The notes below the pieces were generated by a model. It was given only the letters and a program-made list of their open reading frames with translations. It was not told where the DNA came from and did not search any database. A program made the translations under genes and the position numbers. This document shows positions 1,931 to 61,436 of a stretch of DNA of 64,000 bases, piece after piece; within the stretch, counting starts at the first letter, position 1; every line of letters begins with the position of its first letter. The DNA is from Escherichia coli (GTDB taxonomy: Bacteria > Pseudomonadota > Gammaproteobacteria > Enterobacterales > Enterobacteriaceae): assembly GCF_024502345.1 (NCBI RefSeq), contig NZ_JALDNN010000001.1. One strand, written 5' to 3'.

Positions 1931-3643
1931 CTCCACTTCCTGCCAGTTTTTCCGTTTACTGGTTTTACCGATCCCCGGATTCATGCTGTTGGTCGGATCG
2001 TTCTCGCGATAGAACTTCTGCAACGTCTCCGGTGCTTTATACAAATGACCGACGTTATGCTCGGCAGGGTACTGCGCGCCGCGCTGCTGTAGCAGTTCCA
2101 GCATCTGTTCTTTTAACGCATGCACATCCACGCCTTTTTTCACTATGTAATCCTGATGGAAGACATAGCACATAAAATGGCCGTAATAGAGCTTGTGCAC
2201 CAGCTGGCTGTCGATCTCCGGCGGTAAATGCTCATACCACTCGGTGTCGTTACGCCGCAGAGCGATATCCAACGCCAGAATGTCTTCGACTTCATCGGAA
2301 TGCACCGCCTGATAACGAATTGCTGCGCCCGCAGCGGCGAAACGGTGTAAAAACGCTTTGCTGCCTTCCTCCGGCGTACAGACAAAGAAATCGCCTTCGG
2401 CCTGTTTGAAATAATCTACCAGCCACGATTTGGCTTCACCGACGCCATCGCCCGCCATTTTTAACAGCAGATGATGCTCGTATTTATCGCGCCAGTTTTT
2501 CATGCGCGGCGGTAAATGGCTGGGGAACAGGTGACCGAATTTTTGCATCGCACGGTCAGTAAAATGCGGACGGAAGAATTTCACTTTCTCCAGCATCGCA
2601 TCGGTGCGTCCCTTGAGATTAAAGAAGAACGGCATCTTGTCGGTGCCTAACTTATCAATCATCAGGAAGGTGTCTTTGCCGTATTTTTCCGCAATATCGT
2701 AGATATCCCGGTGCATATATTCCCCGGCAACCGGCAGATTTTCGAAGTTAGCCAGAATATGACGGCGGATTTCGGTCAGCACTTCCGGCTGGTTGGTGCC
2801 GATATAAAACACCTGCTGATTTTTTTCCGCCTCGAAGGTATCAAGACGTACTGCAAAGACGGCCAGCTTCCCGGCGCAACCAGAAGATTCAAATAACCGA
2901 TCCGGATCGGCGTTATAACGTGCGGGCGTGTCGGCTTCAATATCACGAACGCGGTGGACATAGTCATAATCGTGGGCGTGACGACCATCGTGACGCACAT
3001 CGTCATCTTTGATGCGATCATCATCCAGCTTGCTAAGGATCTGCTCCGGCGTTTCGCCCAGATCAATCCCCAGATGGTTCACCAGCGTCAGTTTGCCGTC
3101 TTCATTTATACGCGCGAATAACGACATTTCGGTATACGCCGGGCCACGTTGCACCAGCGAGCCGCCGGAGTTGTTACAAATACCACCGATGACCGATGCG
3201 CCTATACACGATGATCCAATCACTGAGTGCGGTTCGCGTCCCAGCGGTTTGAGGGCTTTTTCCAGCGAATAGAGCGTGGTGCCCGGATAGGCCAGCACCT
3301 GTTCGCCCTTGCCGAGAACGTGCAGCTTGTCGAGACGCAGGGTGCTGATGATCACGATATCGCGATCATAGTCGTTACCGTTTGGCGTCGATCCTTCGGT
3401 CAGGCCTGTATTGGCAGCCTGCATCAGAATAATTTTGTCGGCGGTGACGCAGGCTTTCAGCACCCGCCACAATTCCAGTAGTGAGCCAGGGAAAACGACA
3501 GCCAGCGCGTCGCCCTGACCAGAACGGAAGCCCTTGCGATAGCGAGCCGTTTTTGCGGGATCGGTGAGCAGGTGTGAATGACCGACCAGACGGGCAAGTT
3601 CATTCAAAAAGGCTTTATTATCAGTTGTTGTCATGGAAGACAT
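1928..3643 (-). CDS. dld: FAD-dependent D-lactate dehydrogenase
   Basis: ORF 1928..3676 trimmed to MSSMTTTDNKAFLNEL (571 aa), matching Dld as I recall it. Confidence 0.9.
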   Translation of the reverse strand: MSSMTTTDNKAFLNELARLVGHSHLLTDPAKTARYRKGFRSGQGDALAVVFPGSLLELWRVLKACVTADKIILMQAANTGLTEGSTPNGNDYDRDIVIISTLRLDKLHVLGKGEQVLAYPGTTLYSLEKALKPLGREPHSVIGSSCIGASVIGGICNNSGGSLVQRGPAYTEMSLFARINEDGKLTLVNHLGIDLGETPEQILSKLDDDRIKDDDVRHDGRHAHDYDYVHRVRDIEADTPARYNADPDRLFESSGCAGKLAVFAVRLDTFEAEKNQQVFYIGTNQPEVLTEIRRHILANFENLPVAGEYMHRDIYDIAEKYGKDTFLMIDKLGTDKMPFFFNLKGRTDAMLEKVKFFRPHFTDRAMQKFGHLFPSHLPPRMKNWRDKYEHHLLLKMAGDGVGEAKSWLVDYFKQAEGDFFVCTPEEGSKAFLHRFAAAGAAIRYQAVHSDEVEDILALDIALRRNDTEWYEHLPPEIDSQLVHKLYYGHFMCYVFHQDYIVKKGVDVHALKEQMLELLQQRGAQYPAEHNVGHLYKAPETLQKFYRENDPTNSMNPGIGKTSKRKNWQEVE

Positions 3644-3838
3644 TTTCCACTCCTTGTGGTGGCGAAAAAATATCACAAACTAGAATAGCGCCTTGTATGA
3701 CAATTCAGCGAGTGAATATTTTGAAAATTCAGACAATAAACTGAGCATTCTTTTTCTCTCTCCATCATGCTTATGGCAAACTACGGTTTTTGCACCATTT
3801 TCGCTGCCTCGTCGGGCAACAGAGGAAGAAAAATCCAT

Positions 3839-6136
3839 ATGAAATGGCTATGTTCAGTAGGAATCGCGGTGAGTCTGGCCCTGCAGCCAGCACTGGCGGA
3901 TGATTTATTCGGCAACCATCCATTAACGCCCGAAGCGCGGGATGCGTTCGTCACCGAACTGCTTAAGAAAATGACAGTTGATGAGAAAATTGGTCAGCTG
4001 CGCTTAATCAGCGTCGGCCCGGATAACCCGAAAGAGGCGATCCGCGAGATGATCAAAGACGGTCAGGTTGGGGCGATTTTCAACACCGTAACCCGTCAGG
4101 ATATCCGCGCCATGCAGGATCAGGTGATGGAATTAAGCCGCCTGAAAATTCCTCTTTTCTTTGCTTACGACGTGCTGCACGGTCAGCGCACGGTGTTCCC
4201 GATTAGCCTCGGTCTGGCCTCGTCTTTTAACCTCGATGCAGTGAAAACGGTCGGACGTGTCTCTGCTTATGAAGCGGCAGATGATGGCCTGAATATGACC
4301 TGGGCACCGATGGTCGATGTCTCGCGCGATCCGCGCTGGGGACGTGCTTCCGAAGGTTTTGGCGAAGATACGTATCTCACCTCAACAATGGGTAAAACCA
4401 TGGTGGAAGCGATGCAGGGTAAAAGCCCGGCAGATCGCTACTCGGTGATGACCAGCGTCAAACACTTTGCCGCATACGGCGCGGTAGAAGGCGGTAAAGA
4501 GTACAACACCGTCGATATGAGTCCGCAGCGCCTGTTTAATGATTATATGCCGCCGTACAAAGCGGGGCTGGACGCAGGCAGCGGCGCGGTGATGGTGGCG
4601 CTGAACTCGCTGAACGGCACGCCAGCCACCTCCGATTCCTGGCTGCTGAAAGATGTTCTGCGCGACCAGTGGGGCTTTAAAGGCATCACCGTTTCCGATC
4701 ACGGTGCAATCAAAGAGCTGATTAAACATGGCACGGCGGCAGACCCGGAAGATGCGGTGCGCGTGGCGCTGAAATCCGGAATCAACATGAGTATGAGCGA
4801 CGAGTACTACTCGAAGTATCTGCCTGGGTTGATTAAATCCGGTAAAGTGACGATGGCAGAGCTGGACGATGCTGCCCGCCATGTACTGAACGTTAAATAT
4901 GATATGGGGTTGTTTAACGACCCATACAGCCATCTCGGTCCGAAAGAGTCTGACCCGGTGGATACCAATGCCGAAAGCCGCTTGCACCGCAAAGAAGCGC
5001 GTGAAGTGGCGCGTGAAAGCCTGGTGTTGCTGAAAAACCGTCTCGAAACGTTACCGCTGAAAAAATCCGCAACCATTGCGGTGGTTGGCCCGCTGGCAGA
5101 CAGCAAGCGTGACGTGATGGGAAGCTGGTCGGCGGCAGGTGTTGCAGATCAATCCGTGACCGTGCTGACCGGGATTAAAAATGCCGTCGGTGAAAACGGT
5201 AAAGTGCTGTATGCCAAAGGGGCGAACGTTACCAGTGACAAAGGCATTATCGATTTCCTGAATCAGTATGAAGAAGCGGTCAAAGTCGATCCGCGTTCGC
5301 CGCAAGAGATGATTGATGAAGCGGTGCAGACGGCGAAACAATCTGATGTGGTGGTGGCTGTAGTCGGTGAAGCACAGGGGATGGCGCACGAGGCCTCCAG
5401 CCGTACCGATATTACTATTCCGCAAAGCCAACGTGACTTGATTGCGGCGCTGAAAGCCACCGGTAAACCGCTGGTGCTGGTGCTGATGAACGGGCGTCCG
5501 CTGGCGCTGGTGAAAGAAGATCAGCAGGCTGATGCGATTCTGGAAACCTGGTTTGCGGGGACTGAAGGCGGTAATGCAATTGCCGATGTGTTGTTTGGCG
5601 ATTACAACCCGTCCGGCAAGCTGCCGATGTCCTTCCCGCGTTCTGTCGGGCAGATCCCGGTGTACTACAGCCATCTGAACACCGGTCGTCCGTATAATGC
5701 CGACAAGCCGAACAAATACACTTCGCGTTATTTTGATGAAGCTAACGGGGCGCTTTATCCGTTCGGCTATGGTCTGAGCTATACCACTTTCACCGTCTCT
5801 GATGTGAAACTTTCTGCGCCGACCATGAAGCGTGACGGCAAAGTGACGGCCAGCGTGCAGGTGACGAACACCGGTAAACGCGAAGGGGCCACGGTAGTGC
5901 AGATGTACTTGCAGGATGTGACGGCTTCCATGAGTCGTCCGGTGAAACAGCTGAAAGGCTTTGAGAAAATCACCCTGAAACCGGGCGAAACTCAGACCGT
6001 TAGCTTCCCGATTGATATCGAGGCGCTGAAGTTCTGGAATCAACAGATGAGATATGACGCCGAGCCTGGCAAGTTCAATGTCTTTATCGGCACTGATTCC
6101 GCACGCGTTAAGAAAGGCGAGTTTGAGTTGCTGTAA
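3839..6136 (+). CDS. bglX: periplasmic beta-glucosidase (GH3)
   Basis: ORF 3767..6136 trimmed to MKWLCSVGIAVSLALQPALA signal peptide (765 aa); GH3 family sequence. Confidence 0.9.
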   Translation: MKWLCSVGIAVSLALQPALADDLFGNHPLTPEARDAFVTELLKKMTVDEKIGQLRLISVGPDNPKEAIREMIKDGQVGAIFNTVTRQDIRAMQDQVMELSRLKIPLFFAYDVLHGQRTVFPISLGLASSFNLDAVKTVGRVSAYEAADDGLNMTWAPMVDVSRDPRWGRASEGFGEDTYLTSTMGKTMVEAMQGKSPADRYSVMTSVKHFAAYGAVEGGKEYNTVDMSPQRLFNDYMPPYKAGLDAGSGAVMVALNSLNGTPATSDSWLLKDVLRDQWGFKGITVSDHGAIKELIKHGTAADPEDAVRVALKSGINMSMSDEYYSKYLPGLIKSGKVTMAELDDAARHVLNVKYDMGLFNDPYSHLGPKESDPVDTNAESRLHRKEAREVARESLVLLKNRLETLPLKKSATIAVVGPLADSKRDVMGSWSAAGVADQSVTVLTGIKNAVGENGKVLYAKGANVTSDKGIIDFLNQYEEAVKVDPRSPQEMIDEAVQTAKQSDVVVAVVGEAQGMAHEASSRTDITIPQSQRDLIAALKATGKPLVLVLMNGRPLALVKEDQQADAILETWFAGTEGGNAIADVLFGDYNPSGKLPMSFPRSVGQIPVYYSHLNTGRPYNADKPNKYTSRYFDEANGALYPFGYGLSYTTFTVSDVKLSAPTMKRDGKVTASVQVTNTGKREGATVVQMYLQDVTASMSRPVKQLKGFEKITLKPGETQTVSFPIDIEALKFWNQQMRYDAEPGKFNVFIGTDSARVKKGEFELL

Positions 6137-6210
6137 TGCTTTAGTAAGGGCGTGACATTTGCGCCCTTTGCCTGATGTTCATATCTTAACTTGCTGAATT
6201 TTCGCCCTTT

Positions 6211-6245
6211 GTAGGCCGGATAAGGCGCTCGCGCCGCATCCGGCA
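6211..6245. repeat. REP (repetitive extragenic palindromic) element
   Basis: GTAGGCCGGATAAGGCG...CGCCGCATCCGGCA motif in bglX-osmF intergenic. Confidence 0.7.
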
Positions 6246-6387
6246 GGAAACGCCGGACCGAATATGCCTCTTAAGTATTTATCTGATTCTGCAACTGAAT
6301 CCGTCCGCTCAGGCTAATCCCGCCATTATCAACTATGCTTTTCTCTTAATTCGCTGAAAACAACAGTAAAAGAATGAGGAAAGCATC

Positions 6388-7305
6388 ATGCCACTCTCAA
6401 AGGTCTGGGCAGGTTCACTGGTTTTGTTGGCAGCCGTGAGCCTGCCGCTGCACGCGGCTTCCCCCGTTAAAGTCGGTTCAAAAATCGATACTGAAGGCGC
6501 GCTGCTCGGCAATATCATTTTGCAGGTACTGGAAAGCCACGGCGTACCGACGGTCAATAAAGTGCAACTCGGAACGACTCCTGTGGTGCGCGGGGCGATT
6601 ACTTCCGGTGAACTGGATATCTATCCGGAATATACCGGCAATGGCGCGTTTTTCTTTAAAGATGAAAACGATGCAGCGTGGAAAAACGCGCAGCAAGGTT
6701 ACGAGAAAGTCAAAAAACTTGATGCAGAGCAAAACAAGTTAATCTGGCTGACGCCCGCACCTGCAAATAACACCTGGACCATCGCCGTGCGTCAGGATGT
6801 GGCAGAGAAAAACAAACTCACTTCGCTTGCTGACCTGAGTCGTTATCTGAAAGAGGGCGGCACCTTCAAACTGGCAGCCTCGGCAGAGTTTATCGAACGC
6901 GCCGATGCCTTACCCGCGTTTGAAAAAGCCTATGGCTTTAAGCTCGGTCAGGATCAGTTGCTGTCACTGGCTGGTGGCGACACGGCGGTGACGATTAAAG
7001 CCGCTGCCCAGCAAACTTCTGGCGTTAATGCCGCAATGGCTTACGGCACTGACGGTCCGGTCGCGGCGCTGGGGCTGCAAACCTTAAGCGATCCGCAAGG
7101 CGTGCAACCTATCTACGCGCCTGCACCAGTGGTGCGTGAGTCAGTGCTGAAAGAGTATCCGCAAATGGCACAGTGGCTACAGCCAGTCTTCGCCAGCCTC
7201 GATGCAAAAACATTGCAGCAACTGAATGCCAGCATTGCAGTGGAAGGACTGGATGCCAAAAAAGTGGCTGCCGACTACCTGAAACAAAAAGGGTGGGCGA
7301 AGTAA
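6388..7305 (+). CDS. osmF: glycine betaine-binding periplasmic protein of YehZYXW ABC transporter
   Basis: 305 aa with signal peptide; first gene of four-gene ABC transporter cluster. Confidence 0.85.
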   Translation: MPLSKVWAGSLVLLAAVSLPLHAASPVKVGSKIDTEGALLGNIILQVLESHGVPTVNKVQLGTTPVVRGAITSGELDIYPEYTGNGAFFFKDENDAAWKNAQQGYEKVKKLDAEQNKLIWLTPAPANNTWTIAVRQDVAEKNKLTSLADLSRYLKEGGTFKLAASAEFIERADALPAFEKAYGFKLGQDQLLSLAGGDTAVTIKAAAQQTSGVNAAMAYGTDGPVAALGLQTLSDPQGVQPIYAPAPVVRESVLKEYPQMAQWLQPVFASLDAKTLQQLNASIAVEGLDAKKVAADYLKQKGWAK

Positions 7306-14769: not shown

Positions 14770-16773
14770 TCATCCTTGTTGCTGAAGCATGGGGAATAAT
14801 TGTTCGCACAGCAAAACGCAGTTATTCATTGCTTCTACCCGTGCCTCGCTTTCTGTATTACGAAATTGTCCCAATACATGTGCCAGCCGATAAAAAACCA
14901 CCGCGGTGAGGTCATTCGCCAGCAACTCTGCCTGACCAATAGCACTCTGTTCCTGATAGCGCCAGCCGTTATGGAGCAGTTGAATAAGTAATGCCTGGCA
15001 GCGCATCAGCAACTGATGAGCAGTAGACGGCACAGGCAGAACGCTGACAGAAGGTAGTGATGCCACCACAGGCGCAGTTTCTGCGTCCAGCGCCCAGGCA
15101 CGAGTCTTTGTCATCATTACCTGTGGTTCCAGTGTCAATTGCCCATCAACAAAACTGACAAAGCCAGAAACCAGACACACGGGGTCGTCTGTTTGTTGCA
15201 AAAGCGCCGCCATGCGTTCAATGGCATAAGGCGCGCTGGCTGAGGCTGGCAGTGATAACGTCAGCAGATTATCTTCACCTTCGCCGCTGATTACCTGCGC
15301 ATCCAGCGTCTGGCGGCTGCTATCCCAACCGAGCGAAATACACTCAGCGACCGGCAGAATAAATAAGTTATCGACCTGATTAAGAGGCCGTATGCAGGAG
15401 GGGGGACGCTGGCGTAAATATTCCCGCAAAGCCACAATGCCCGGCTGGCGTAACGGCGCGCTCAACATTTGCCAGGCATCAGGCGACAGCGGCACAACGC
15501 TGCTTAAGCGGTTGCGGGTAGCTAACAGCAGCTCGCCATCGGCACTGCGTTTTGCTGCTTGTGAAACAATTTGCCCACCCGCCAGTGCGCCAGCCTGAAA
15601 ACTAAACAGCCGACGCGTAGCTGCCGGTGAGTTTTCCTGTTCACTTCGCGGCCAACTGCGCGAAAGGTGCAAAATACTGCCGGTGTCGGGATCGGTAAAC
15701 CAGATGCGTAAACCATAATGCTCAATATCCTGCCAGCAACGCATACCTAAAGACACCAGCCGCAGATGATCAAGCTTTGCTTCTCCGGCAATGCCAGAGC
15801 CAACGACCGTGCGCCACGGCACAGGAGGAACTTCACCAACACTGTCGCGCCGCGCCATCTCTTGTGCGCAATTTAATCGACTGTTTAATGCCGCAAGCTG
15901 ACGTAAGCATTCTCCGGCATGATAGTGGCTGGCGCGGGCGTGGAAGGCATCAACGCTGGCGCGCAGTTGCCGTAGCGATTCACTCACCCATCGCCAGTTG
16001 CAGCGTTCCGCTGCTTGCTGCGCGCGGCTGAAAGCGGCCTCGTAGTGAATAAGCGGCTGGCTGATGCCGCCCAGCCATAATGCCTGGCTTAGTTGCTGAA
16101 CATATTGACGACACGTTTTGCCTTCTTCGCTGGCAAACAGATCGTCAGATGATGTGACGTGTTCGCTGCGCATCTGCCAGATTAAATGAGTCAATTCCGG
16201 TTGCTGCGCTTTTGCCTGGACAAAGGCCTGTACTGCCAGTACGACATGTTCGCAAAGTGTGCCTTCAATACAATCACAACGGGCGAAACGAATGCTGCTA
16301 CGGGAATAAAAACGCACATCGCTCATCGGTAAGCGGGCAGAGGGAATTTCGCCCGGCGTACAGAACAACTCAATGGTGATGCCTTTAGCGACCAGCGCCT
16401 GCGCGCGTTTGCGGGTGGCATCGGGCAGGGTAGCCAGTTCTTCCAGCCAGATTGCCGGATCCCACTCTTCTTCTTTTTCTGTGGGCTGGACGGTGGCACA
16501 AAGTCGTTGATAACTTAACACCAGCATCACGCGATGACGGCACATGCCGCTGGCCCCGCAGCTGCACTGAGCCTCTTTCAGTGCCTGGCCGTTCGCCAGC
16601 TGGGTACGGACACCGTCACTGAAGGTGGCGATTAAAGCGCCGTTCTCATGGCTGATCTCCGGGACGTTGCCATTTTCCAGTTCCTTAAGACTGCGCTTAA
16701 CAAAACCGGCATTGCTTAACGCTGTCAGGGCCTGCGGTGTCAGTTCTAATAATTCCGGACGTAGTGAATTCAT
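14770..16773 (-). CDS. yehQ: SWIM zinc-finger domain protein
   Basis: CxC...CxH SWIM motif (QCSCGASGMCRHRVM); start chosen at ATGA overlap with yehP stop. Confidence 0.8.
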   Translation of the reverse strand: MNSLRPELLELTPQALTALSNAGFVKRSLKELENGNVPEISHENGALIATFSDGVRTQLANGQALKEAQCSCGASGMCRHRVMLVLSYQRLCATVQPTEKEEEWDPAIWLEELATLPDATRKRAQALVAKGITIELFCTPGEIPSARLPMSDVRFYSRSSIRFARCDCIEGTLCEHVVLAVQAFVQAKAQQPELTHLIWQMRSEHVTSSDDLFASEEGKTCRQYVQQLSQALWLGGISQPLIHYEAAFSRAQQAAERCNWRWVSESLRQLRASVDAFHARASHYHAGECLRQLAALNSRLNCAQEMARRDSVGEVPPVPWRTVVGSGIAGEAKLDHLRLVSLGMRCWQDIEHYGLRIWFTDPDTGSILHLSRSWPRSEQENSPAATRRLFSFQAGALAGGQIVSQAAKRSADGELLLATRNRLSSVVPLSPDAWQMLSAPLRQPGIVALREYLRQRPPSCIRPLNQVDNLFILPVAECISLGWDSSRQTLDAQVISGEGEDNLLTLSLPASASAPYAIERMAALLQQTDDPVCLVSGFVSFVDGQLTLEPQVMMTKTRAWALDAETAPVVASLPSVSVLPVPSTAHQLLMRCQALLIQLLHNGWRYQEQSAIGQAELLANDLTAVVFYRLAHVLGQFRNTESEARVEAMNNCVLLCEQLFPMLQQQG

Positions 16774-17906
16774 GACTGAAGATTCTCCGCAAGCCATGAT
16801 GCCAGTTCGCCCGGTGTCATGGCGGCTATTTGTGCGCCGACATTAACCAGCGCCTGGGCCGTATCGCGGTCATAGCAAGGCGTTGCTGTGCTATCGAGCG
16901 CCGCCAGTCCCAGCACTTTGATGCCGCTCTGGACACACTTTTTCACCTGATGCGTCAGCAATGATGATGAACCCCCTTCGTAAAAATCGCTCACGAGGAT
17001 AATGACGCTTTTTGCTGGTTGTTCAATAAGTTGCCGACCATATTCCACGGCACTGGCGATATTGGTCCCGCCGCCCAACTGTACTTTCATTAATAACTCT
17101 ACCGGATCGGCAACGTCTGCCGTGAGATCAACGACGCTTGTGTCAAACGCCACCAGATGGGTACGAATGCCGGGTAACTGCCACAAACAGGCCGCCATCA
17201 CCGCAGAGTGGATCACCGAGTCCACCATCGATCCGCTTTGATCAACCAGTAAGACCAGTTGCCATTGTTCACTGTGGCGTTTAATGCGGCTGTTAAAGCG
17301 GGGGGATTCGATATACAACTTGCCGTGTTGCGGGTGCCAGTGTTGCAGGTTGGCGCGCAGAGTACTTTTGAAATCAAAGTTTCGCGCCAGTGGAATAAAT
17401 GAGCGGCGACGGCGATCGCGGACACCAGAAAAAGCCTGACGAACTTCCTTTGCCAGTCGAGCCATAATTTCTTCAACAACCTGGCGCACTATCCGGCGGG
17501 CGGCAGCCAGTACTTCGGGGTTCATCAGATGTTTGGTGTGCAAAACGGCGCGTAGCAGACTTTCAGAAGGCTGCATACGTTCCAGCACGTCGAGATTCGT
17601 CACCACATCTTCAATGCCGTAGCGCAGTACGGCATCGCTTTCCAGCCGCTCAATCACCTGTTGCGGAAACAGCGTGTGAATACTGTTGATCCACTCAGGG
17701 GTGGTGAGATTTGAGCTACCTAATCCACCGGAACGTTCACCACGCTGGAGCCGTTCAGGATCGCGCCCATACAGCCACTCCAGCGCGTGGTCTATCTGCC
17801 GGGCGTTGTCATCCAGCCCACAAAGCGTCGTTTCTGCCGCTTCGCCAAGAATTAATCGCCAGCGTTGTAGCTCACGGGTGGTCAGAAGATCGTTCAGTTC
17901 AGACAT
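16770..17906 (-). CDS. yehP: von Willebrand factor A (VWA) domain protein
   Basis: MIDAS motif DQSGSM; ORF trimmed to MSELNDLL start, 5 bp from yehM stop. Confidence 0.85.
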   Translation of the reverse strand: MSELNDLLTTRELQRWRLILGEAAETTLCGLDDNARQIDHALEWLYGRDPERLQRGERSGGLGSSNLTTPEWINSIHTLFPQQVIERLESDAVLRYGIEDVVTNLDVLERMQPSESLLRAVLHTKHLMNPEVLAAARRIVRQVVEEIMARLAKEVRQAFSGVRDRRRRSFIPLARNFDFKSTLRANLQHWHPQHGKLYIESPRFNSRIKRHSEQWQLVLLVDQSGSMVDSVIHSAVMAACLWQLPGIRTHLVAFDTSVVDLTADVADPVELLMKVQLGGGTNIASAVEYGRQLIEQPAKSVIILVSDFYEGGSSSLLTHQVKKCVQSGIKVLGLAALDSTATPCYDRDTAQALVNVGAQIAAMTPGELASWLAENLQS

Positions 17907-20178
17907 GGAAAACTCCCCAGTTTTGCAGCGATGCCAGTGCCTGCTGTTCGAGTTGTTGATGATGTGCAATGGCTTGTGGTGGACAATGCAACGGCATTTG
18001 CAGCGCCGAAACGGGAAGTTGCGCCAGTTGATAATGCTCAAGCACCTGATGCGCCAGCGTCCCGCGTTCTCGTGGTGGTAGCCAGGCCATCGCCGCGCGT
18101 AAATCGGGCAGGGCATTGATAAAATTGGCATCACTCAGTTGATTTAAATGACTGCTGAAACCGGCGATAAATGCCGGCTGACAGGCCAGTTGATGGCGGG
18201 CCAGCGCCAGCAAACCGTGCAGCGCTTCGCCGGATTGTGCCGGGGATAACTGCGCCAGCATCGTCAGCGCCGCTTCGGCACTAGCGTTGGGATGTTCCAG
18301 ACGCATCAGTGCGCCAAGAGCCGCGCCGCGATCCAGCGCCGGGGCATGGATTGCCTGACTGCGTCGCTCCAGTAAGGCTACCGCCGCAGAAAGAGAAACG
18401 CCGGGTAAATTAACGCCGCTATATAGATCGCGCAGGATATGGCAAAGCGCCTGCCAGCTATGCATGTGAGCGTGAAACTCCTTTTCATCTGGTCTGCCGT
18501 TAGATTCACACAGCCACAGCGTGCGATCGATAGCCGCGCATAACGTCGTTTGTAATATCTGCGCGCCTTGCATACCGCTAATTTCATCCAGCCGCCATAA
18601 GGCATATAGCACTTCCAGCGCCTGGCCCATTTCGGCAAATTGATTTTCCTGGGCGATTAATAATGTGAGTTGCTCCAGTAATTGTTGACTGAAGGACGCC
18701 AGACCCGCTAACGCCGCCTGGCTAAGACATGTGGTGATACTGCCGATTCCACCCGCGTCCAGCATATCGGTTTCTAATTTATGGCGTGCGGCTTCCTGGA
18801 GTGTGGCACCAAAGCAGGCGGCCTCAATCAATGCCGCATGCTGGCTAAGCGGGCGGGTTAATTTCCAGCGTTCTTCACCGTTGCCTGCAAGTGTCAGTGT
18901 GCTTCCCTGCTGGCGTACAATCCCTGGGATCTCCAGTATTGCCAGCCGATGTAACACCTGACTTTGCGCTAGTCCATTGGGGTTAAAGCGATTTAAGGTA
19001 AGCTCCGCCGGAAGAGAGATTGCGGTACGTTCCAGTTCGCAGGTGACATCTTTTGGCAGAGGCGGTTGTGGCGTAGAAGGGGCAAGTTTACCGAATCCGT
19101 CACCCGCTAATGTGTCTATCAACGTTAGCAGAATCGGATCGGTATCGGGATGAATAACGCCGCGATAGCTCCATGGCAACGGCGCATTCAGGGATTCTTT
19201 AATCAGCGAGCCTGCTAAGGCATCCAGCCAGTCAGTGCGTAACGGTAGTGTATGACCGCGCAACTGTGCCAGCGCCATCGCATGCAGATGAGCGGCAGCC
19301 ATATCCGCGGTCGAAGCAGGCAAGTGGTGTTGGCGCAAACGGGTAAGAACCGTTTTTAGCAGTTGTTCTCCCGCCTGCTGTAAGCCCCACTGCCAGCACC
19401 AGCTTTGCCAGACCGGGGCAGGCATTCCTGAAAGGTATCCTGCCAGCACATCAAGGCGCTTTTCACTGTAGGGTGTGAGATAACAACCTGTAACGGCATC
19501 TGCCAGCGAGGGCAATTCTGGCTTGTTAATGTCCTGCGGACATTCGCGCCACATTTTTGCCAGTGCCGGAGCGTGCCAGCCACCGCAGACGACTAACACG
19601 TCGCCATTGTTTTGCTGCATCGCCCATGCAATCCAGCGGGCCATGAAGGCTTCGCGCTGACGATTGAGAGCATCTCCGGGGGAATCGCCCCGCAGTTGTG
19701 CAAAATAGTGCGCCAGCGCAGAGGGTAATGCAGTTTGCTGGCTTTCATCTTCGAATAAGTGATCCCACAGGGTATCGCTGTTATCCATGCGGGTGGCACG
19801 CAGCAGTAAGGTCTGGCTTTCATCTTGCGTATCAGGCGAATCGTTCTCTTCTTCACTCTGCGCCCAGCAAGGCAAATCGATGAAGTAAGTTTATGCCTGA
19901 ATACGACGTGCGGCTTGTAGCGCCTGCCACTCCGGCGAAAATTCAGCAAATGGCGTCCAGGCACCACGCCCGGGGGCCGCACCGTCCTGATACTGGCAAT
20001 AACTGTAAATAGCTACCGGAAGCTGGTGGGCTAAAAACAGTTCGTCTACCCGGTCATTAAAATCAGCCGGGCCTTCAATCAACACGTATCGTGGCCGCTG
20101 GCTTTCGATTAATGATTTGACCAGCCGGGCGCAGGCCGGGCTATGATGCCGGATGCCGACAATTAACGGCTCGCTCAT
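17899..20178 (-). pseudogene. yehM: yehM interrupted by in-frame TAA (codon ~97 of 760)
   Basis: ORFs 19891..20346 and 17899..19875 share one frame, separated only by TAA at 19891..19893; total span 2280 nt = 759 aa + stop. Confidence 0.75.
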
Positions 20179-20188
20179 GCATCTTTCC

Positions 20189-21277
20189 TCACGGCAGGCG
20201 GTGGCGGGCTTGATAATAAGCCTGCCAGTGAGCTTCTTTATGTGTGGCGACACGCTGTTCGAAGTAACGGCGCAGACGAGCGCGATCTTCTTCGTTATCT
20301 TTGACGATGGTTCCGGCAATACAGTCCACCAGATCGGCTGGCTCACCTGCGCGATTCGCTAAAAACCAGGCGCGGACGCCCACAGCGTGGGCCACGTTCA
20401 CGGCTTCAGCGGTGGACATAATCGCTGTTAGTGTATCCATTGACGTTTTCTTTTCGCCGTTGGCACGCAGATCGCGGAAGGTGCGGACCAGTAACTCCAG
20501 TACCGCGTCAGGCACTTTATGCGGAATACCGCTATGGGCCAGCAAACGCGCCGAAGCACTGGCGACAAGCTCCAGCTCCTGGGCGAAATCCATAATCGGA
20601 AAGACAGTTTCAAAATCGAAGCGACGCTTTAGCGCAGCACTCATTTCATTGACGCCGCGATCGCGGGTATTGGCAGTGGCAATAATATTAAAGCCTTCTC
20701 GCGCATAGAGCTGACTGGCTTCACCAGTGAGTTCCGGCACCGTCATCACCCTGTCAGAAAGCATACCTAACAGACAGTCTTGCACTTCCAGCGGTGTACG
20801 CGTTATCTCTTCAAAACGGACGATTTTGCCGTCGCGCATTCCCTGGTAAAGCGGGGCAGGGACCAGCGCTTCCGTTGATGGACCATGATTGATAAGCAGG
20901 GCGTAGTTCCAGCCGTACTTGATTTGATCTTCGGTAGTAGATGCGCCGCCCTGGATGGTTAACCCGGCATCGCCGCTAATAGAGGTTGCCAGTAATTCAG
21001 ACAGGAGAGATTTTGCGGTGCCAGGTTCCCCCACCAACATCAAACCGCGTCCGGTGGCAAGAGTGACTAACATACGTTCGACAGCGGAGGGACTAATCAC
21101 CACTTTACGGCTAATATTTTGCGCGCTATCGCCAAGGATAAAAGCACGGGCCGCAGGCAAACTTAACTGCCAACCGGGCGGGCAAGGTGCGTTATCATTT
21201 TGTTTTAATTTTGCCAGTTCATCGGCGTATAACACAGCAGCAGGCGGACGCTGCAGATGATTATTCTGCGGTGACAT
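20189..21277 (-). CDS. yehL: MoxR-family AAA+ ATPase
   Basis: Walker A GEPGTAKS, MoxR/CbbQ-like core; ORF trimmed to MSPQNNHLQ (362 aa). Confidence 0.85.
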   Translation of the reverse strand: MSPQNNHLQRPPAAVLYADELAKLKQNDNAPCPPGWQLSLPAARAFILGDSAQNISRKVVISPSAVERMLVTLATGRGLMLVGEPGTAKSLLSELLATSISGDAGLTIQGGASTTEDQIKYGWNYALLINHGPSTEALVPAPLYQGMRDGKIVRFEEITRTPLEVQDCLLGMLSDRVMTVPELTGEASQLYAREGFNIIATANTRDRGVNEMSAALKRRFDFETVFPIMDFAQELELVASASARLLAHSGIPHKVPDAVLELLVRTFRDLRANGEKKTSMDTLTAIMSTAEAVNVAHAVGVRAWFLANRAGEPADLVDCIAGTIVKDNEEDRARLRRYFEQRVATHKEAHWQAYYQARHRLP

Positions 21278-21385
21278 ATATTCATCCCTGAAATGTATTA
21301 ATGAAATAAACGATATTTTACGCGCAATAAATGTTTGGCGCATTAGTTGTTTGAGCGAAAAATATCTGGAAAGCAGATCACAGTA

Positions 21386-21471
21386 AATAAAAAAACCTGC
21401 TGGTGAGGCAGGTTCTTTTATTTACTATTTTCAGGCCTAACACCACAGCCTGTGCAACATCGTGTTCCAAC
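21386..21471 (-). ncRNA. candidate Orz-like antitoxin sRNA (copy 1)
   Basis: minus-strand promoter (-35 TTGCAA 21501..21506, 17-bp spacer, -10 TATAAT 21478..21483), intrinsic terminator at 21386..21413; 5' end complementary to zor 5'UTR 21618..21638. Confidence 0.55.
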
Positions 21472-21477
21472 GAACGA

Positions 21478-21528
21478 ATTATAACCACGGCTGGACCCCG
21501 TTGCAATTAAGATAATGAGATTTATAAT
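21478..21528. promoter_or_regulatory. divergent promoter pair sharing one palindromic -35 hexamer TTGCAA (copy 1)
   Basis: plus strand: TTGCAA-16 bp-TATAAT (21523..21528); minus strand: same TTGCAA-17 bp-TATAAT. Confidence 0.55.
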
Positions 21529-21709
21529 CCTGACTGTTGGGACGTTGCGCCGGATCGAACCTATTTCAAGTCCTGGCTACCGGACGGGGGGTGCTGCAGG
21601 TAGTGCCCTGATCCGGAGTGCAACATCGTGGTCCAACATACGTAAACCAGTATCGACAGGCAGTGTAAGGGTAAGGTGCTGGTGTTGCGCTCCTTAATAA
21701 GGAGAGCGG

Positions 21710-21799
21710 ATGGACTCGCTGACACAAAAGTTAACCGTGCTCATTGCTGTACTGGAGCTATTAGTGGCTCTGTTACGGTTGATTGATTTGTTGAAGTAA
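21710..21799 (+). CDS. type I toxin, 29 aa MDSLTQKLTVLIAVLELLVALLRLIDLLK (ZorO/ZorP-like)
   Basis: hand translation; GGAGAG RBS; single hydrophobic helix; ~174-nt leader from predicted TSS; near-identical copy 608 bp downstream. Confidence 0.7.
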   Translation: MDSLTQKLTVLIAVLELLVALLRLIDLLK

Positions 21800-21820
21800 C
21801 GGGCAAATTGAAACGCATCT

Positions 21821-21846
21821 AAGGGGGAAAACCGCTTCCCCCTTTA
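21821..21846 (+). terminator. intrinsic terminator of toxin mRNA copy 1
   Basis: GGGGGAA-loop-TTCCCCC hairpin followed by TTTAATAAA. Confidence 0.7.
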
Positions 21847-21995
21847 ATAAAATGATTACTGTTTTTATTAATTCATCATATAACTCATTTTTATTTATAA
21901 ATTCATCGATTTTATATTCAACGCACCATTTGACCGGGATGTGAATATTTATGTTGGGCTATTGGCAAAAAATATCTGGAAAGTAGATCGCAGAA

Positions 21996-22079
21996 AATAA
22001 AAAAACCTGCTGGTGAGGCAGGTTCTTTTATTTACTACAGTGACGCTAACTTGCTGATTGTGCAACATTTCGTACCAAC
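21996..22079 (-). ncRNA. candidate Orz-like antitoxin sRNA (copy 2)
   Basis: same promoter/terminator architecture as copy 1 (-35 22109..22114, -10 22086..22091, hairpin 22006..22022). Confidence 0.55.
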
Positions 22080-22085
22080 GAATAA

Positions 22086-22136
22086 ATTATATCCATATCC
22101 ACACTCCATTGCAATTCAGTGAGTGAGATTTATAAT
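22086..22136. promoter_or_regulatory. divergent promoter pair sharing palindromic TTGCAA (copy 2)
   Basis: TTGCAA 22109..22114; plus-strand TATAAT 22131..22136; minus-strand TATAAT (rc) 22086..22091. Confidence 0.55.
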
Positions 22137-22317
22137 CCTGCCCGTTGGGAGGTTGTGCCGGATCGGACCAATTTTAAGTCCTGGCTGCCGGACGGGTGGT
22201 GCCGCAGGCGGTGCCCTGATCCGGAGAGCAACGTTTCGTACCAACATACGTAAACCAGTATCAACAGGCAGTGTAAGGGTAAGGTGCTGGTGTTGCGCTC
22301 CTTAATAAGGAGAGCGG

Positions 22318-22407
22318 ATGGACACGCTGACACAAAAGTTAACCGTGCTCATTGCCGTACTGGAGTTATTAGTGGCTCTGTTACGGTTGATTGATTTGTT
22401 GAAGTAA
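22318..22407 (+). CDS. type I toxin, 29 aa MDTLTQKLTVLIAVLELLVALLRLIDLLK (ZorO/ZorP-like)
   Basis: hand translation; differs from copy 1 by S3T; same RBS and leader structure. Confidence 0.7.
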   Translation: MDTLTQKLTVLIAVLELLVALLRLIDLLK

Positions 22408-22428
22408 CGGGCAAATTGAAACGCATCT

Positions 22429-22454
22429 AAGGGGGAATACCGTTTCCCCCTTTA
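22429..22454 (+). terminator. intrinsic terminator of toxin mRNA copy 2
   Basis: GGGGGAA-loop-TTCCCCC hairpin + T-run. Confidence 0.7.
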
Positions 22455-22516
22455 AGAAAGCTATACTCGTCATACTTCAAGTTGCATGTGCTGCGACTTT
22501 AATTATCTAGAGTATA

Positions 22517-22894: not shown

Positions 22895-25102
22895 TTAATG
22901 GAAAATGACGTCAGGTGCGCTTAACGCCTCACTCAAATCAAACACATCAAGTTCGGCAAAAGTGACGGATTTATTGTCACGGTACACTCGAAGAGAACGG
23001 AAGCTCATTAGCGCTTTGCTATCAACATTGTAGTGGTTAAAACCGGGTGAAAACTTAAGGACCAGCCGGTACTCGCCCAGGTCATAGACAAATGCATCCT
23101 CATAGCCTGACTCCCAGCCTTTGTATCGCATTCCCATAAGCTGCCCAACGGTAGCGGATTTACCTTCCCAGCGAGTCAGGCTGTTACTGGTTGACTCGTC
23201 AGGTGTGAGCAGCACCGTGCACCGCGCCAACTGGCGAAAAGGCGGCATAATTTCGTAATCGGCAAAAAGCTGTGCAAATTCACTGCGCATTTCTACTGTC
23301 ATTTCTAACGGGTGGGCAATGCCAATCAGAGCGTCCGCAGGCAGGTCAATTGGCTCATCTTGCGCATTGCAGAACTCCCCCTCTGCGGCCACACGAAAGG
23401 CGTTGAGTAAACAACGCGGTTCATTTGCCGGATAAGCCCCCCATATTAATCGCTGGGTAACCAGACGGGTAAAGGGATGATTAACAAACAGAGAATGAAA
23501 ATCTGCCAGCGACCAGCGTCGGGTGGTACGTAGGGCCGTTTCAAGACGCGGGAGCAGGTTTTTGCTCACCTGAGTGGCATCTTTTTTTAGCCCTTTTAGT
23601 CGGGCCAGTGCCTCGGGCGCTTTCAGTTGATCGTCATCGGCGCGCAACCGGGGAACGCTTTTCTGGCGAACGTTTTGCTGATCAAAGATAACCGGGTTGA
23701 GGTTTTCATCGAAGCGAACGGTAAACTGCCGGGGACCAAAATCAAAACTCAACGCCTGCGGATCATCAAGGCCCAGGGTTGGGACTAATCTGTCCGCTAG
23801 CTCTTCCTGGCTTAGCCCGCGATTTTCTGCGACCACCTGAAGAAATTCCGCCGCGTTATCACGTAAGGGGCGGGATTTCGCCCGTTGCGATATATGATGC
23901 AGCTGTATCAGCGCCATATCATTATTCATCAGGGTAAGGATGTTCAGGCCACTGACAGCACGGGCAGATTTGCCTTCTTGTGGCCAGCCGAGGATCTGTG
24001 TCGTTAGATCCCGTGCCGTGCTTTCGTCACCAAAGAGACTTAACGCCAGAAATGCCCAGTTGTCTTTTACGGGGGCACCAGCTTGTTGCCACGCAGTGAA
24101 GAGATCCCAGGCAAAAGCTGCCAGCGTTTGTGGCTGGCAGAACGTTTTCAGTTGTTCCAGCCCGCTATAAAAACGTCCCCCCTGGGTAAAGCGCAGCATT
24201 TCGCCGATAATTTCCAGAGCGTCATCGGTAACAGGTTGATTATTAGTGATAAGGCGCGGCCTGGACCACATTTGCGGATGCCAGAAATCAGGGGCTTTTG
24301 GAATGCGTGCCGGGTAAATCTCTATTGGACTCTGTTTAAGTAATTGTTCCAGGGCAGGCCATAGATCTGTACGCTGCCAACGATTGGCTACAGTTTGTAG
24401 CAATTCGCCATGCCCATGTTCGTAAAGTAAACGCAGGGCAAGTAATGCAGCTTCGCTTTTATCGCTAGATTTGGTGAAGACAAGAGGGATAAGTGCAGTA
24501 GCCGTATGTTCCGGCCATTGTAAAATCCACTGGCGAGCCAGATTACGCTGGCCCGCAAAACGCTGCCAGCAGCTTTCCTCTGCCAGAGAGAGATGCTTAC
24601 GCAGTCGGAGATCGAATTCGTTATAGGTTTCTGAGCGATAACCATAGCCATAATCCTCGTCCTGATACTGCAATGTCACTACCAGAGGATCACTCTCATA
24701 ACACCGCGCAATAAACTGGCGTGCAATCACCACCTCAGTCGCATATTCCAGCCCCTCTTGTTGGACGATTTCGTCGAGCAACTGTTGGCTGTCATTTTGC
24801 GCGATACAGGCTAGCGCCGCCATTGTCCGGGGCGGGATTGAGGGTTTGTGTTCGCCGATCAAGTTGATGGCCTGCGTGATGGCGGACTGCCACTCCAGTG
24901 AAAAATTTTCATAACGCCAGACAATGTTTTTTTTCTTCTCAGCTTTTTGTAGCAATTCATCACCCAGTGTCTGAATGATGCTTTCAGTGATAACAGGCAC
25001 TGGTTCGCCCGGCCAATTGCGATGGCTGAGTGGTGTTTTACCATTTTTATATTTCAGTTCCAGTTGGGCGTTATCAGCCAGCCACGGTAATTCCTTGTCC
25101 AT
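22895..25102 (-). CDS. yehI: DUF4132-type protein, shortened paralog of MolR
   Basis: 735 aa; C-terminal region clearly paralogous to MolR (FHSLFVNHPFTRLVTQRLIWGAY vs FQLFLVEHPLVRHLTRRLIWGVY); starts 10 bp after molR stop. Confidence 0.75.
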   Translation of the reverse strand: MDKELPWLADNAQLELKYKNGKTPLSHRNWPGEPVPVITESIIQTLGDELLQKAEKKKNIVWRYENFSLEWQSAITQAINLIGEHKPSIPPRTMAALACIAQNDSQQLLDEIVQQEGLEYATEVVIARQFIARCYESDPLVVTLQYQDEDYGYGYRSETYNEFDLRLRKHLSLAEESCWQRFAGQRNLARQWILQWPEHTATALIPLVFTKSSDKSEAALLALRLLYEHGHGELLQTVANRWQRTDLWPALEQLLKQSPIEIYPARIPKAPDFWHPQMWSRPRLITNNQPVTDDALEIIGEMLRFTQGGRFYSGLEQLKTFCQPQTLAAFAWDLFTAWQQAGAPVKDNWAFLALSLFGDESTARDLTTQILGWPQEGKSARAVSGLNILTLMNNDMALIQLHHISQRAKSRPLRDNAAEFLQVVAENRGLSQEELADRLVPTLGLDDPQALSFDFGPRQFTVRFDENLNPVIFDQQNVRQKSVPRLRADDDQLKAPEALARLKGLKKDATQVSKNLLPRLETALRTTRRWSLADFHSLFVNHPFTRLVTQRLIWGAYPANEPRCLLNAFRVAAEGEFCNAQDEPIDLPADALIGIAHPLEMTVEMRSEFAQLFADYEIMPPFRQLARCTVLLTPDESTSNSLTRWEGKSATVGQLMGMRYKGWESGYEDAFVYDLGEYRLVLKFSPGFNHYNVDSKALMSFRSLRVYRDNKSVTFAELDVFDLSEALSAPDVIFH

Positions 25103-60422: not shown

Positions 60423-61436
60423 TTACTCTACTGTGGACACTGTGTGGACACTCTCGGCCTCAGTACCACCTCTTAGCGGATTAAGAGAAATGGCGTCCTG
60501 AAGGTACTCTGGCGCAAAATGAGCGTAAACCATAGTTTGCTCAATCCGCGTGTGACCTAGTATCCGTTGTAGCGTGATAATACTTCCTCCATTAATCATG
60601 AAATGAGTGGCAAAGCTGTGCCTTAGTGCATGTGTGGCTTGCCCCATTGGCAAATCCGGTTTTATTGCTTTCATTGTTCGTCTGAAGCGAGGGTAATCAG
60701 CATCAGGGAATAAAAAACCTCGTTTGTTATCCGCGATCATTTTGGCAACAGCCTCTGAGATCGGGACGGTGCGTGGTTTGTTTGTTTTCGTTTTAACAAA
60801 CGTGACGCGGTTATGGATGATATTTTCTGCTTTCAAACGAGCTGCTTCTCCCCAACGCGCTCCTGTACTCAGGCAAAGAATCGCAATCTTTTTATTGTCG
60901 CCGTCAAGTGCTGCAAGCAGTAAGGCAATTTCTTCCTGTGTGAGATAGCCTGTTTCTGGTTTTTCCTCCTTAAGCCTCTTTGTCCCTCTGATAGGGTGCT
61001 CACCAAAGAATAACTCCGCTTCAATCAGGGCTGTAAACATGCCGCTAATACATGTTAAATCACGATTGATACTCGAAGGTTTAATACCCTGACTTCTTCG
61101 GGTGGCGCAGTACTGGCTGATAAGGGATTTCGTGATTTGAAATGCGCATGGGTCATTCGTTATTTTTGTGAAGATTTCAATTTTTCCAAGATTAGATTTC
61201 CCATGCTCTTCGTGTTTACCCTTTAAATCCCACCAGATCTGTGTCAGTTCCGACAGACGTCGTTTGTCTGTTGGTTTTGATAGCCATTCTTTATTGTGGT
61301 GGTTGTACAACGTGTATTTTTCGAAAGCGACAGCTTCGCTTTTCTTATCAAATTTCCTACGGATGCGTTTTCCGTTACGTCCAGTAGGGCGGATGTCCAC
61401 TTCATATCGACCATCATCGAGTTTTTTGATTGCCAT
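60423..61436 (-). CDS. int: P2-type tyrosine integrase
   Basis: 337 aa; C-terminal HxxR...Y catalytic motifs (HALRHSFATHF...YAHF). Confidence 0.95.
   Translation of the reverse strand: MAIKKLDDGRYEVDIRPTGRNGKRIRRKFDKKSEAVAFEKYTLYNHHNKEWLSKPTDKRRLSELTQIWWDLKGKHEEHGKSNLGKIEIFTKITNDPCAFQITKSLISQYCATRRSQGIKPSSINRDLTCISGMFTALIEAELFFGEHPIRGTKRLKEEKPETGYLTQEEIALLLAALDGDNKKIAILCLSTGARWGEAARLKAENIIHNRVTFVKTKTNKPRTVPISEAVAKMIADNKRGFLFPDADYPRFRRTMKAIKPDLPMGQATHALRHSFATHFMINGGSIITLQRILGHTRIEQTMVYAHFAPEYLQDAISLNPLRGGTEAESVHTVSTVE

Follow-up and report, generated by a model that had tools for sequence, protein, structure and literature searches.

A premature ochre stop in yehM of a small Escherichia coli clone, a rare allele of a gene inactivated in many lineages

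In a stretch of 64,000 nucleotides from an Escherichia coli genome (contig NZ_JALDNN010000001.1 of assembly GCF_024502345.1; hereafter the window), yehM, a gene of the yehLMPQ operon, is interrupted at codon 96 by an ochre stop. A real and recent C>T transition, which turned the glutamine codon CAA into TAA and was fixed in a small clone, very probably made the gene a pseudogene there. The operon encodes a MoxR ATPase (YehL), a DUF5682 protein (YehM), a VWA protein (YehP) and a SWIM protein (YehQ). Strain K-12 has two MoxR proteins, of which YehL is one, and YehL is also the type of one of the seven MoxR AAA+ subfamilies (PMC3893208); in K-12 the operon is silenced by H-NS (PMC3686432). The stop stands in a gene that is broken in other ways in many E. 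coli lineages, and below we consider its origin, its expected effect on the protein and what the repeated loss of yehM may mean.

A single base change interrupts the yehM reading frame

The stop was read directly from the sequence. On the minus strand, the codons around window positions 19893..19891 are CGT ATT CAG GCA TAA ACT TAC TTC ATC GAT TTG CCT, and the translation across this point is AARRIQA*TYFIDLPCW. A sequence-only reading of the window had described two open reading frames (ORFs) in the same frame, parted by nothing but the TAA at 19891..19893, and had counted 759 amino acids plus stop from the MSEPL start at 20178 to the stop at 17899. Both descriptions are borne out: the ORF list gives the two pieces at 19891..20346 and 17899..19875, the latter opening with TTG and encoding 658 amino acids, and translation of 20178..17899 in one frame yields 760 codons with codon 96 as the sole internal stop and a normal terminal stop. 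The same reading placed the truncation at residue 96, which is correct for the stop codon itself but one too many for the predicted product, which comprises 95 residues.

Compared with the intact yehM of three complete genomes, the frame in the window (17899..20178, minus strand; 759 codons plus stop) differs at one of 2280 bases, a C>T change at nt 286 that appears as G>A at window 19893 on the plus strand. It otherwise equals the gene for the intact protein WP_097505501.1 of strains MLI023K1 and PRO_A-1412. Because the 2280-nt frame matches three intact genomes save for this one base, the pattern is not due to chance, and the earlier proposal of a single-base nonsense change instead of an indel is confirmed. 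A Dcm hot spot was considered as the cause of the mutation and rejected, as the mutated C sits in GCACAAA and not in CCWGG.

Origin and distribution of the allele

A 401-bp query around the stop found matches in 5217 of 5426 complete E. coli genomes, in each case under a gene annotated as yehM (DUF5682 family protein). No match was 100% identical. The top three, at 99.8%, are the nearest complete genomes, MLI023K1 and MLI023K2 from Mali and PRO_A-1412-6M-A_ESBL from Tanzania, whose yehM protein (WP_097505501.1) is annotated as intact. Codon 96 is CAA (Gln) in all 13 other E. coli genomes in which it was read, at identities from 95.5% to 99.8%; this alignment picks out CAA among the six ancestral codons that had been proposed. 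A 61-mer centred on the TAA has no exact match in any of the approximately 4900 complete genomes that align to it. Together with the conserved CAA codon and with full-length, single-protein homologues elsewhere, this also means that orthologues ending at codon 96 and followed by a separate downstream gene, the arrangement that would speak against a broken gene, were not encountered. By these comparisons, the stop is derived from the CAA codon of Gln96 by a C>T change on the coding strand. It is one among a few dozen recent differences between the window and MLI023K1, which outside a recombinant patch diverge by about one single-nucleotide polymorphism (SNP) per kb.

The exact 95-residue peptide and the exact 658-residue product of the TTG start are both present in a collection of 15 billion proteins. 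Besides the window, the genuine carriers of the stop come down to only two contigs, JBAOKM010000034.1 (GCA_050022275.1) and one in the Logan assembly of SRR24000611, and a look-up of the 658-residue product in an index of 153 billion genes agrees. In both assemblies yehM is identical to that of the window, stop included, and the 20.3 kb and 11.5 kb compared hold two differences from the window apiece, none of them in common. Because these differences fall at unshared positions, the three sequences, as far as they could be compared, are separate assemblies of one tight clone, and the TAA allele is, on the collections searched, private to it. The peptide look-up also returned 27 contigs, which we rejected as wide support for the allele: among the ten places listed, eight are contigs that end at yehM nt 285-287, and the next base, where visible, is C. 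These ends are best explained as chance truncations that an exact-length look-up picks from a very large pool; a nearby polymorphism was considered as their cause and dismissed, since none was present at that point in 13 sampled sequences.

Conservation and predicted fold of YehM

Intact YehM matches the Pfam family DUF5682 (PF18934) over residues 20-715 (E=9e-99), a label that both fragments carry in precomputed hits. The Pfam search of the intact protein returned no other family, TraB and Erythro_esteras included; phmmer found no relative among the sequences of the PDB, NCBIfam gave just weak matches below threshold, and a literature search for DUF5682 retrieved no paper on the family. Homologues occur in Enterobacterales and Betaproteobacteria (Klebsiella, Erwinia, Serratia, Massilia, Variovorax, Burkholderia and others). 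All of them are single proteins of about 760-830 amino acids with 99-100% query coverage, and no lineage among the homologues examined is naturally split at codon 96. When 27 sequences were aligned, 35 positions within the first 95 proved invariant, among them G8, R10, H11, S13-A17, V32-P37 (with E35), D39 and W74, while the invariant positions past the stop include C198-G199-G200 and H202.

In an AlphaFold2 model of YehM (mean predicted local distance difference test score, pLDDT, 83; predicted template modelling score, pTM, 0.77), the N-terminal domain is of the alpha/beta type, its strands spanning residues 5-9, 31-37, 55-63, 71-77, 96-101, 194-199 and 228-236, and a long helical region comes after it. 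The modelled domain has the parallel beta-sheet core common to solved members of the TIKI/TraB/erythromycin-esterase group, and in fold comparisons it scored 11.6 with a TraB family protein, 10.6 with ChaN, 10.4 with 2rad, 10.1 with HopBA1, 8.8 with 2qgm, 8.2 each with PMT and EreC, and 7.2 with RRSP. The TIKI superfamily takes in these proteins, and catalysis is carried out by His-Glu pairs in the sheet core (PMC6254334). In the alignment and model, the invariant H11, E35 and H202 of YehM sit just after or at the ends of core strands and may form one active site. What sets YehM apart from the TIKI/TraB/ChaN/erythromycin-esterase superfamily is its C-terminal helical part, about 500 residues long, together with its setting in a MoxR-VWA-SWIM operon. 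The stop falls at the start of the modelled core strand 96-101 and parts the invariant H11 and E35 from the GGxH202 motif.

Expected fate of the interrupted protein

Translation would end after 95 residues. The resulting fragment (19894..20178, minus strand), which would still be translated, corresponds to the first half of the TIKI/TraB/erythromycin-esterase-like domain, that is, its strands 1-4 with the 35 invariant residues, G8, R10, H11 and E35 among them. The rest of the N-terminal domain, with GGxH202, and the long helical C-terminal region would no longer be made. The nearest in-frame start beyond the stop is the TTG at 19875 (codon 102), 15 nt downstream, and a product restarted there (ORF 17899..19875, minus strand, 658 amino acids) would be without residues 1-101. 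The computed energy of the duplex with the anti-Shine-Dalgarno sequence is +1.6 kcal/mol for this TTG, against -6.2 for the native yehM start and -7.9 for that of yehP; with no Shine-Dalgarno sequence upstream, the second ORF is probably untranslated. Because the only nearby in-frame start lacks a ribosome-binding site, so that neither the remainder of the domain nor the helical region would be produced, the sequence points to a likely loss of YehM function within an operon that otherwise encodes the MoxR ATPase, the VWA protein and the SWIM protein.

Three other accounts of the stop have to be set against a recent inactivating mutation. An error of sequencing or assembly in the source genome, with C as the true base, would fit the single base that separates yehM in the window from that of the nearest complete genomes, but the T is also found in two assemblies of other accessions, one from NCBI and one from Logan/SRA, each with its own two unshared differences from the window, and we consider such an error highly improbable. 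It is also very unlikely, if a shade less so, that yehM has become a functional split gene in which the 95-residue peptide and the 658-residue product of the TTG at 19875 assemble into an active two-piece YehM. The TTG lies just 15 nt past the stop with the frame kept, and gene callers predict both pieces. However, it has no Shine-Dalgarno sequence (+1.6 kcal/mol), the break removes residues 96-101, a core beta-strand with the invariant F99 and D101, no orthologue is split here among about 4900 complete genomes or among the homologues of other genera, and the allele occurs on just two further contigs in the index of 153 billion genes. Readthrough of the TAA, be it programmed or by an ochre suppressor tRNA, that still yields full-length YehM has a next to negligible probability in our estimate: UAA is the most efficient terminator in E. 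coli, and natural isolates seldom carry ochre suppressors, which come at a cost. Because the window contains no tRNA gene and the stop is missing from every relative examined, leaving no conserved recoding site, recoding finds no support.

Some points do count against a simple loss of function in a well-attested clone. Low-level reinitiation without a Shine-Dalgarno sequence right after a stop codon occurs in E. coli, and a domain cut in two can at times reassemble from its pieces. The sister assemblies, moreover, could be re-sequencings of very close isolates, so that their independence holds at the level of assemblies and not as proven lineages. With these points taken into account, a recent CAA to TAA transition that inactivated yehM in a small clone is still what we regard as very probable.

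The yehLMPQ operon and possible polarity

The three other genes of the operon, all on the minus strand, have retained their reading frames. Upstream of yehM, yehL (20189..21277) encodes a MoxR-type AAA+ ATPase (AAA_5, PF07728) and is intact and identical to that of MLI023K1. Downstream, yehP (16770..17906), for a VWA-domain protein (PF05762/PF13519), is likewise intact. Between its ATG and the yehM stop there is an overlap of 8 nt, but yehP has a strong Shine-Dalgarno sequence of its own, GGGGAG. The reading frame of yehQ (14770..16773), for a SWIM zinc-finger protein, is intact and carries the substitution G626V. The preservation of yehL, yehP and yehQ fits a recent event in yehM.

Rho-dependent polarity over untranslated message is established in E. 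coli. The approximately 2 kb of message left untranslated by the stop may thus lower the expression of yehP and yehQ, an effect that is plausible by analogy with known cases in this species. The sequence-only reading had proposed such an effect, by polarity or by lost coupling; the proposal stays tentative, as yehP has its own strong Shine-Dalgarno sequence and the operon is silenced by H-NS in K-12 (PMC3686432). A trace of relaxed selection on the downstream genes was sought in an excess of non-synonymous change. Between the window and MLI023K1, yehP and yehQ show four differences, all of them non-synonymous; three are derived in MLI023K1, where yehM is intact, and one, YehQ G626V, is derived in the clone of the window. 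With just one of the four changes on the side of the clone, the comparison is uninformative, and we discarded it as a sign of relaxed selection after the stop. The G626V change (GGT>GTT) is present in the window and in both sister assemblies and is not found in MLI023K1, O157, UTI89 or HNSQ2209; apart from the stop itself, it is the only change in yehMPQ derived in this clone.

An AAA_5 MoxR gene (yehL) and a VWA gene (yehP) on one strand make up a MoxR-VWA operon, and the RefSeq annotation concurs. Such a pair, here with both genes adjoining yehM, resembles the MoxR/VWA chaperone pairs RavA-ViaA and NorQ-NorD, but the RavA and NorQ systems are without counterparts of YehM and YehQ. None of YehL, YehM, YehP, YehQ, YehI, YehK or the upstream DUF4132 protein matched the defence models of PADLOC-DB v2, and a literature search on DUF4132, MoxR, SWIM and vWA returned nothing that treats the yehLMPQ operon.

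Other inactivated yehM alleles and selection on the intact gene

Several other null alleles of yehM were found. In O157:H7 strain F7386 (locus E4U67_RS09400) the gene carries Q510* (CAG>TAG), and the exact 61-mer of this allele is present in 300 of the 5426 complete genomes, of the O157:H7 type. The case resembles that of the window in that a Gln codon of the same gene became a stop by C>T while yehL, yehP and yehQ are intact, and RefSeq records a pseudogene; it differs in being an amber codon at position 510 instead of an ochre codon at 96, and in being widespread, whereas the allele of the window occurs in none of the complete genomes. UTI89 and the type strain ATCC 11775 share a frameshift, found in 131 complete genomes, that arose when the tandem 7-bp repeat CGGCATC (nt 21-34) dropped one of its two copies. 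This too is an independent inactivation near the 5' end with intact neighbours, brought about by repeat slippage and not by base substitution. Strain SCEC020007 has S224* (TCG>TAG at codon 224), and in HNSQ2209 an IS5 insertion breaks the gene. Records of Shigella flexneri include a 73-residue N-terminal fragment of YehM, on contigs of up to 1.8 Mb. In lineages 2 and 3 of Shigella sonnei, yehM and yehL are deleted (PMC12795559).

At least 431 of the 5426 complete genomes carry either Q510* or the 7-bp deletion, and yehM was a pseudogene in one of eight genomes of an evenly spaced sample. The neighbouring yehI and yehK are often pseudogenes as well. Nonsense pseudogenes are a familiar kind of event, and the stop in the window adds a new, rare allele to a gene that already bears a pseudogene annotation in hundreds of genomes.

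The tandem repeat that slipped in UTI89 is present as CGGCATC CGGCATC in the window (20145-20158, minus strand); it is slippage-prone and could recurrently switch yehM off.

Between lineages, the ratio of non-synonymous to synonymous substitution rates (dN/dS) is about 0.13-0.15 for intact yehM and about 0.06 for yehL and yehP; the comparison of yehQ with UTI89 was discarded, being out of register through indels. The value for yehM indicates that purifying selection normally acts on the gene where it is intact. Many lineages keep the YehLMPQ system, and others can do without it.

Other features of the window

Upstream of the operon, the gap of about 1.2 kb between yehK and yehL contains two direct repeats of about 500 bp each (21351-21851 and 21962-22459), which are about 88% identical; the length of this gap varies by strain from about 300 bp to 1240 bp. 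The DUF4132 gene yehI (22895-25102, minus strand) encodes 735 amino acids after an in-frame deletion of 1425 bp (475 codons) relative to MLI023K1, with a junction near 24559-24569 and an overlap of about 11 bp. The same 735-residue gene is found in GCA_050022275.1. Elsewhere yehI is frameshifted (MLI023K1 and PRO_A-1412) or carries an internal stop (HNSQ2209).

Two insertion sequences (IS) of the window are missing from MLI023K1. An IS1 copy of 767 bp (33929-34695; InsA/InsB ORFs, NCBIfam transpos_IS1) falls, by its coordinates, within the yehABCD operon, inside the gene for the fimbrial chaperone, and an element of the IS5 family of about 1057 bp (36319-37375) lies inside the usher gene yehB. 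The latter has the look of an IS903-like element, its ends bearing GGCTTTGTTGAATAAATC inverted repeats, and GGTGCGAGC appears to be duplicated. The segment 60344-64000, with a tyrosine integrase (60423..61436, minus strand), a repressor-like ORF and small ORFs, is not at this place in MLI023K1; it lies just past the collinear region and presumably resembles the end of a P2-like prophage. In the pbpG-dld-bglX region (2417-7143), about 80 SNPs separate the window from MLI023K1, against about one per kb elsewhere, and this segment is probably a recombination tract.

Discussion

The yehM stop of the window is real, and it is an ordinary pseudogene mutation in a silent accessory gene that is broken otherwise in many lineages. 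As a private marker of a small clone it matters little in itself, and annotation should record the gene as a pseudogene interrupted by an internal stop. The gene, on the other hand, is among the more frequently and independently inactivated ones of its region, which raises the question of whether its loss is adaptive, knock-outs being selected time and again because YehM, or the YehLMPQ machine as a whole, imposes a cost or does harm in certain niches. At least five other independent inactivations (Q510*, the 7-bp slippage, S224*, the IS5 insertion and the deletion in S. sonnei lineages 2 and 3) can be cited in its favour, as can the intact yehL, yehP and yehQ in the three of those genomes whose neighbours were viewed, and the purifying selection on intact yehM (omega about 0.15), by which the gene is not mere junk. 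Against this, the frequent pseudogenes of yehI and yehK and the silencing by H-NS in K-12 (PMC3686432) fit relaxed selection on the whole locus. In addition, no other gene of the operon is as long as yehM, which accordingly offers mutation the largest target, and the genome sample is small and partly non-random. On balance we consider adaptive loss unlikely. Slightly more doubtful still is the specific proposal that the recurrent knock-outs reflect selection against the product itself, a TIKI/TraB-like hydrolase that would plausibly be the effector of an uncharacterised MoxR-VWA-SWIM machine; if true, the locus would be a natural experiment hinting at a costly and possibly conflict-related function.

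Two by-products of the analysis may be of use. Since at least 431 of the complete genomes carry one of the two other null alleles, strain differences in YehLMPQ are common and should be weighed before results from K-12 are generalised. The predicted TIKI/TraB/erythromycin-esterase-like fold of the N-terminal part of DUF5682, with its invariant His and Glu residues, leads to the hypothesis that these proteins may have hydrolase or protease activity, which concerns the last MoxR system of E. coli still to be characterised.
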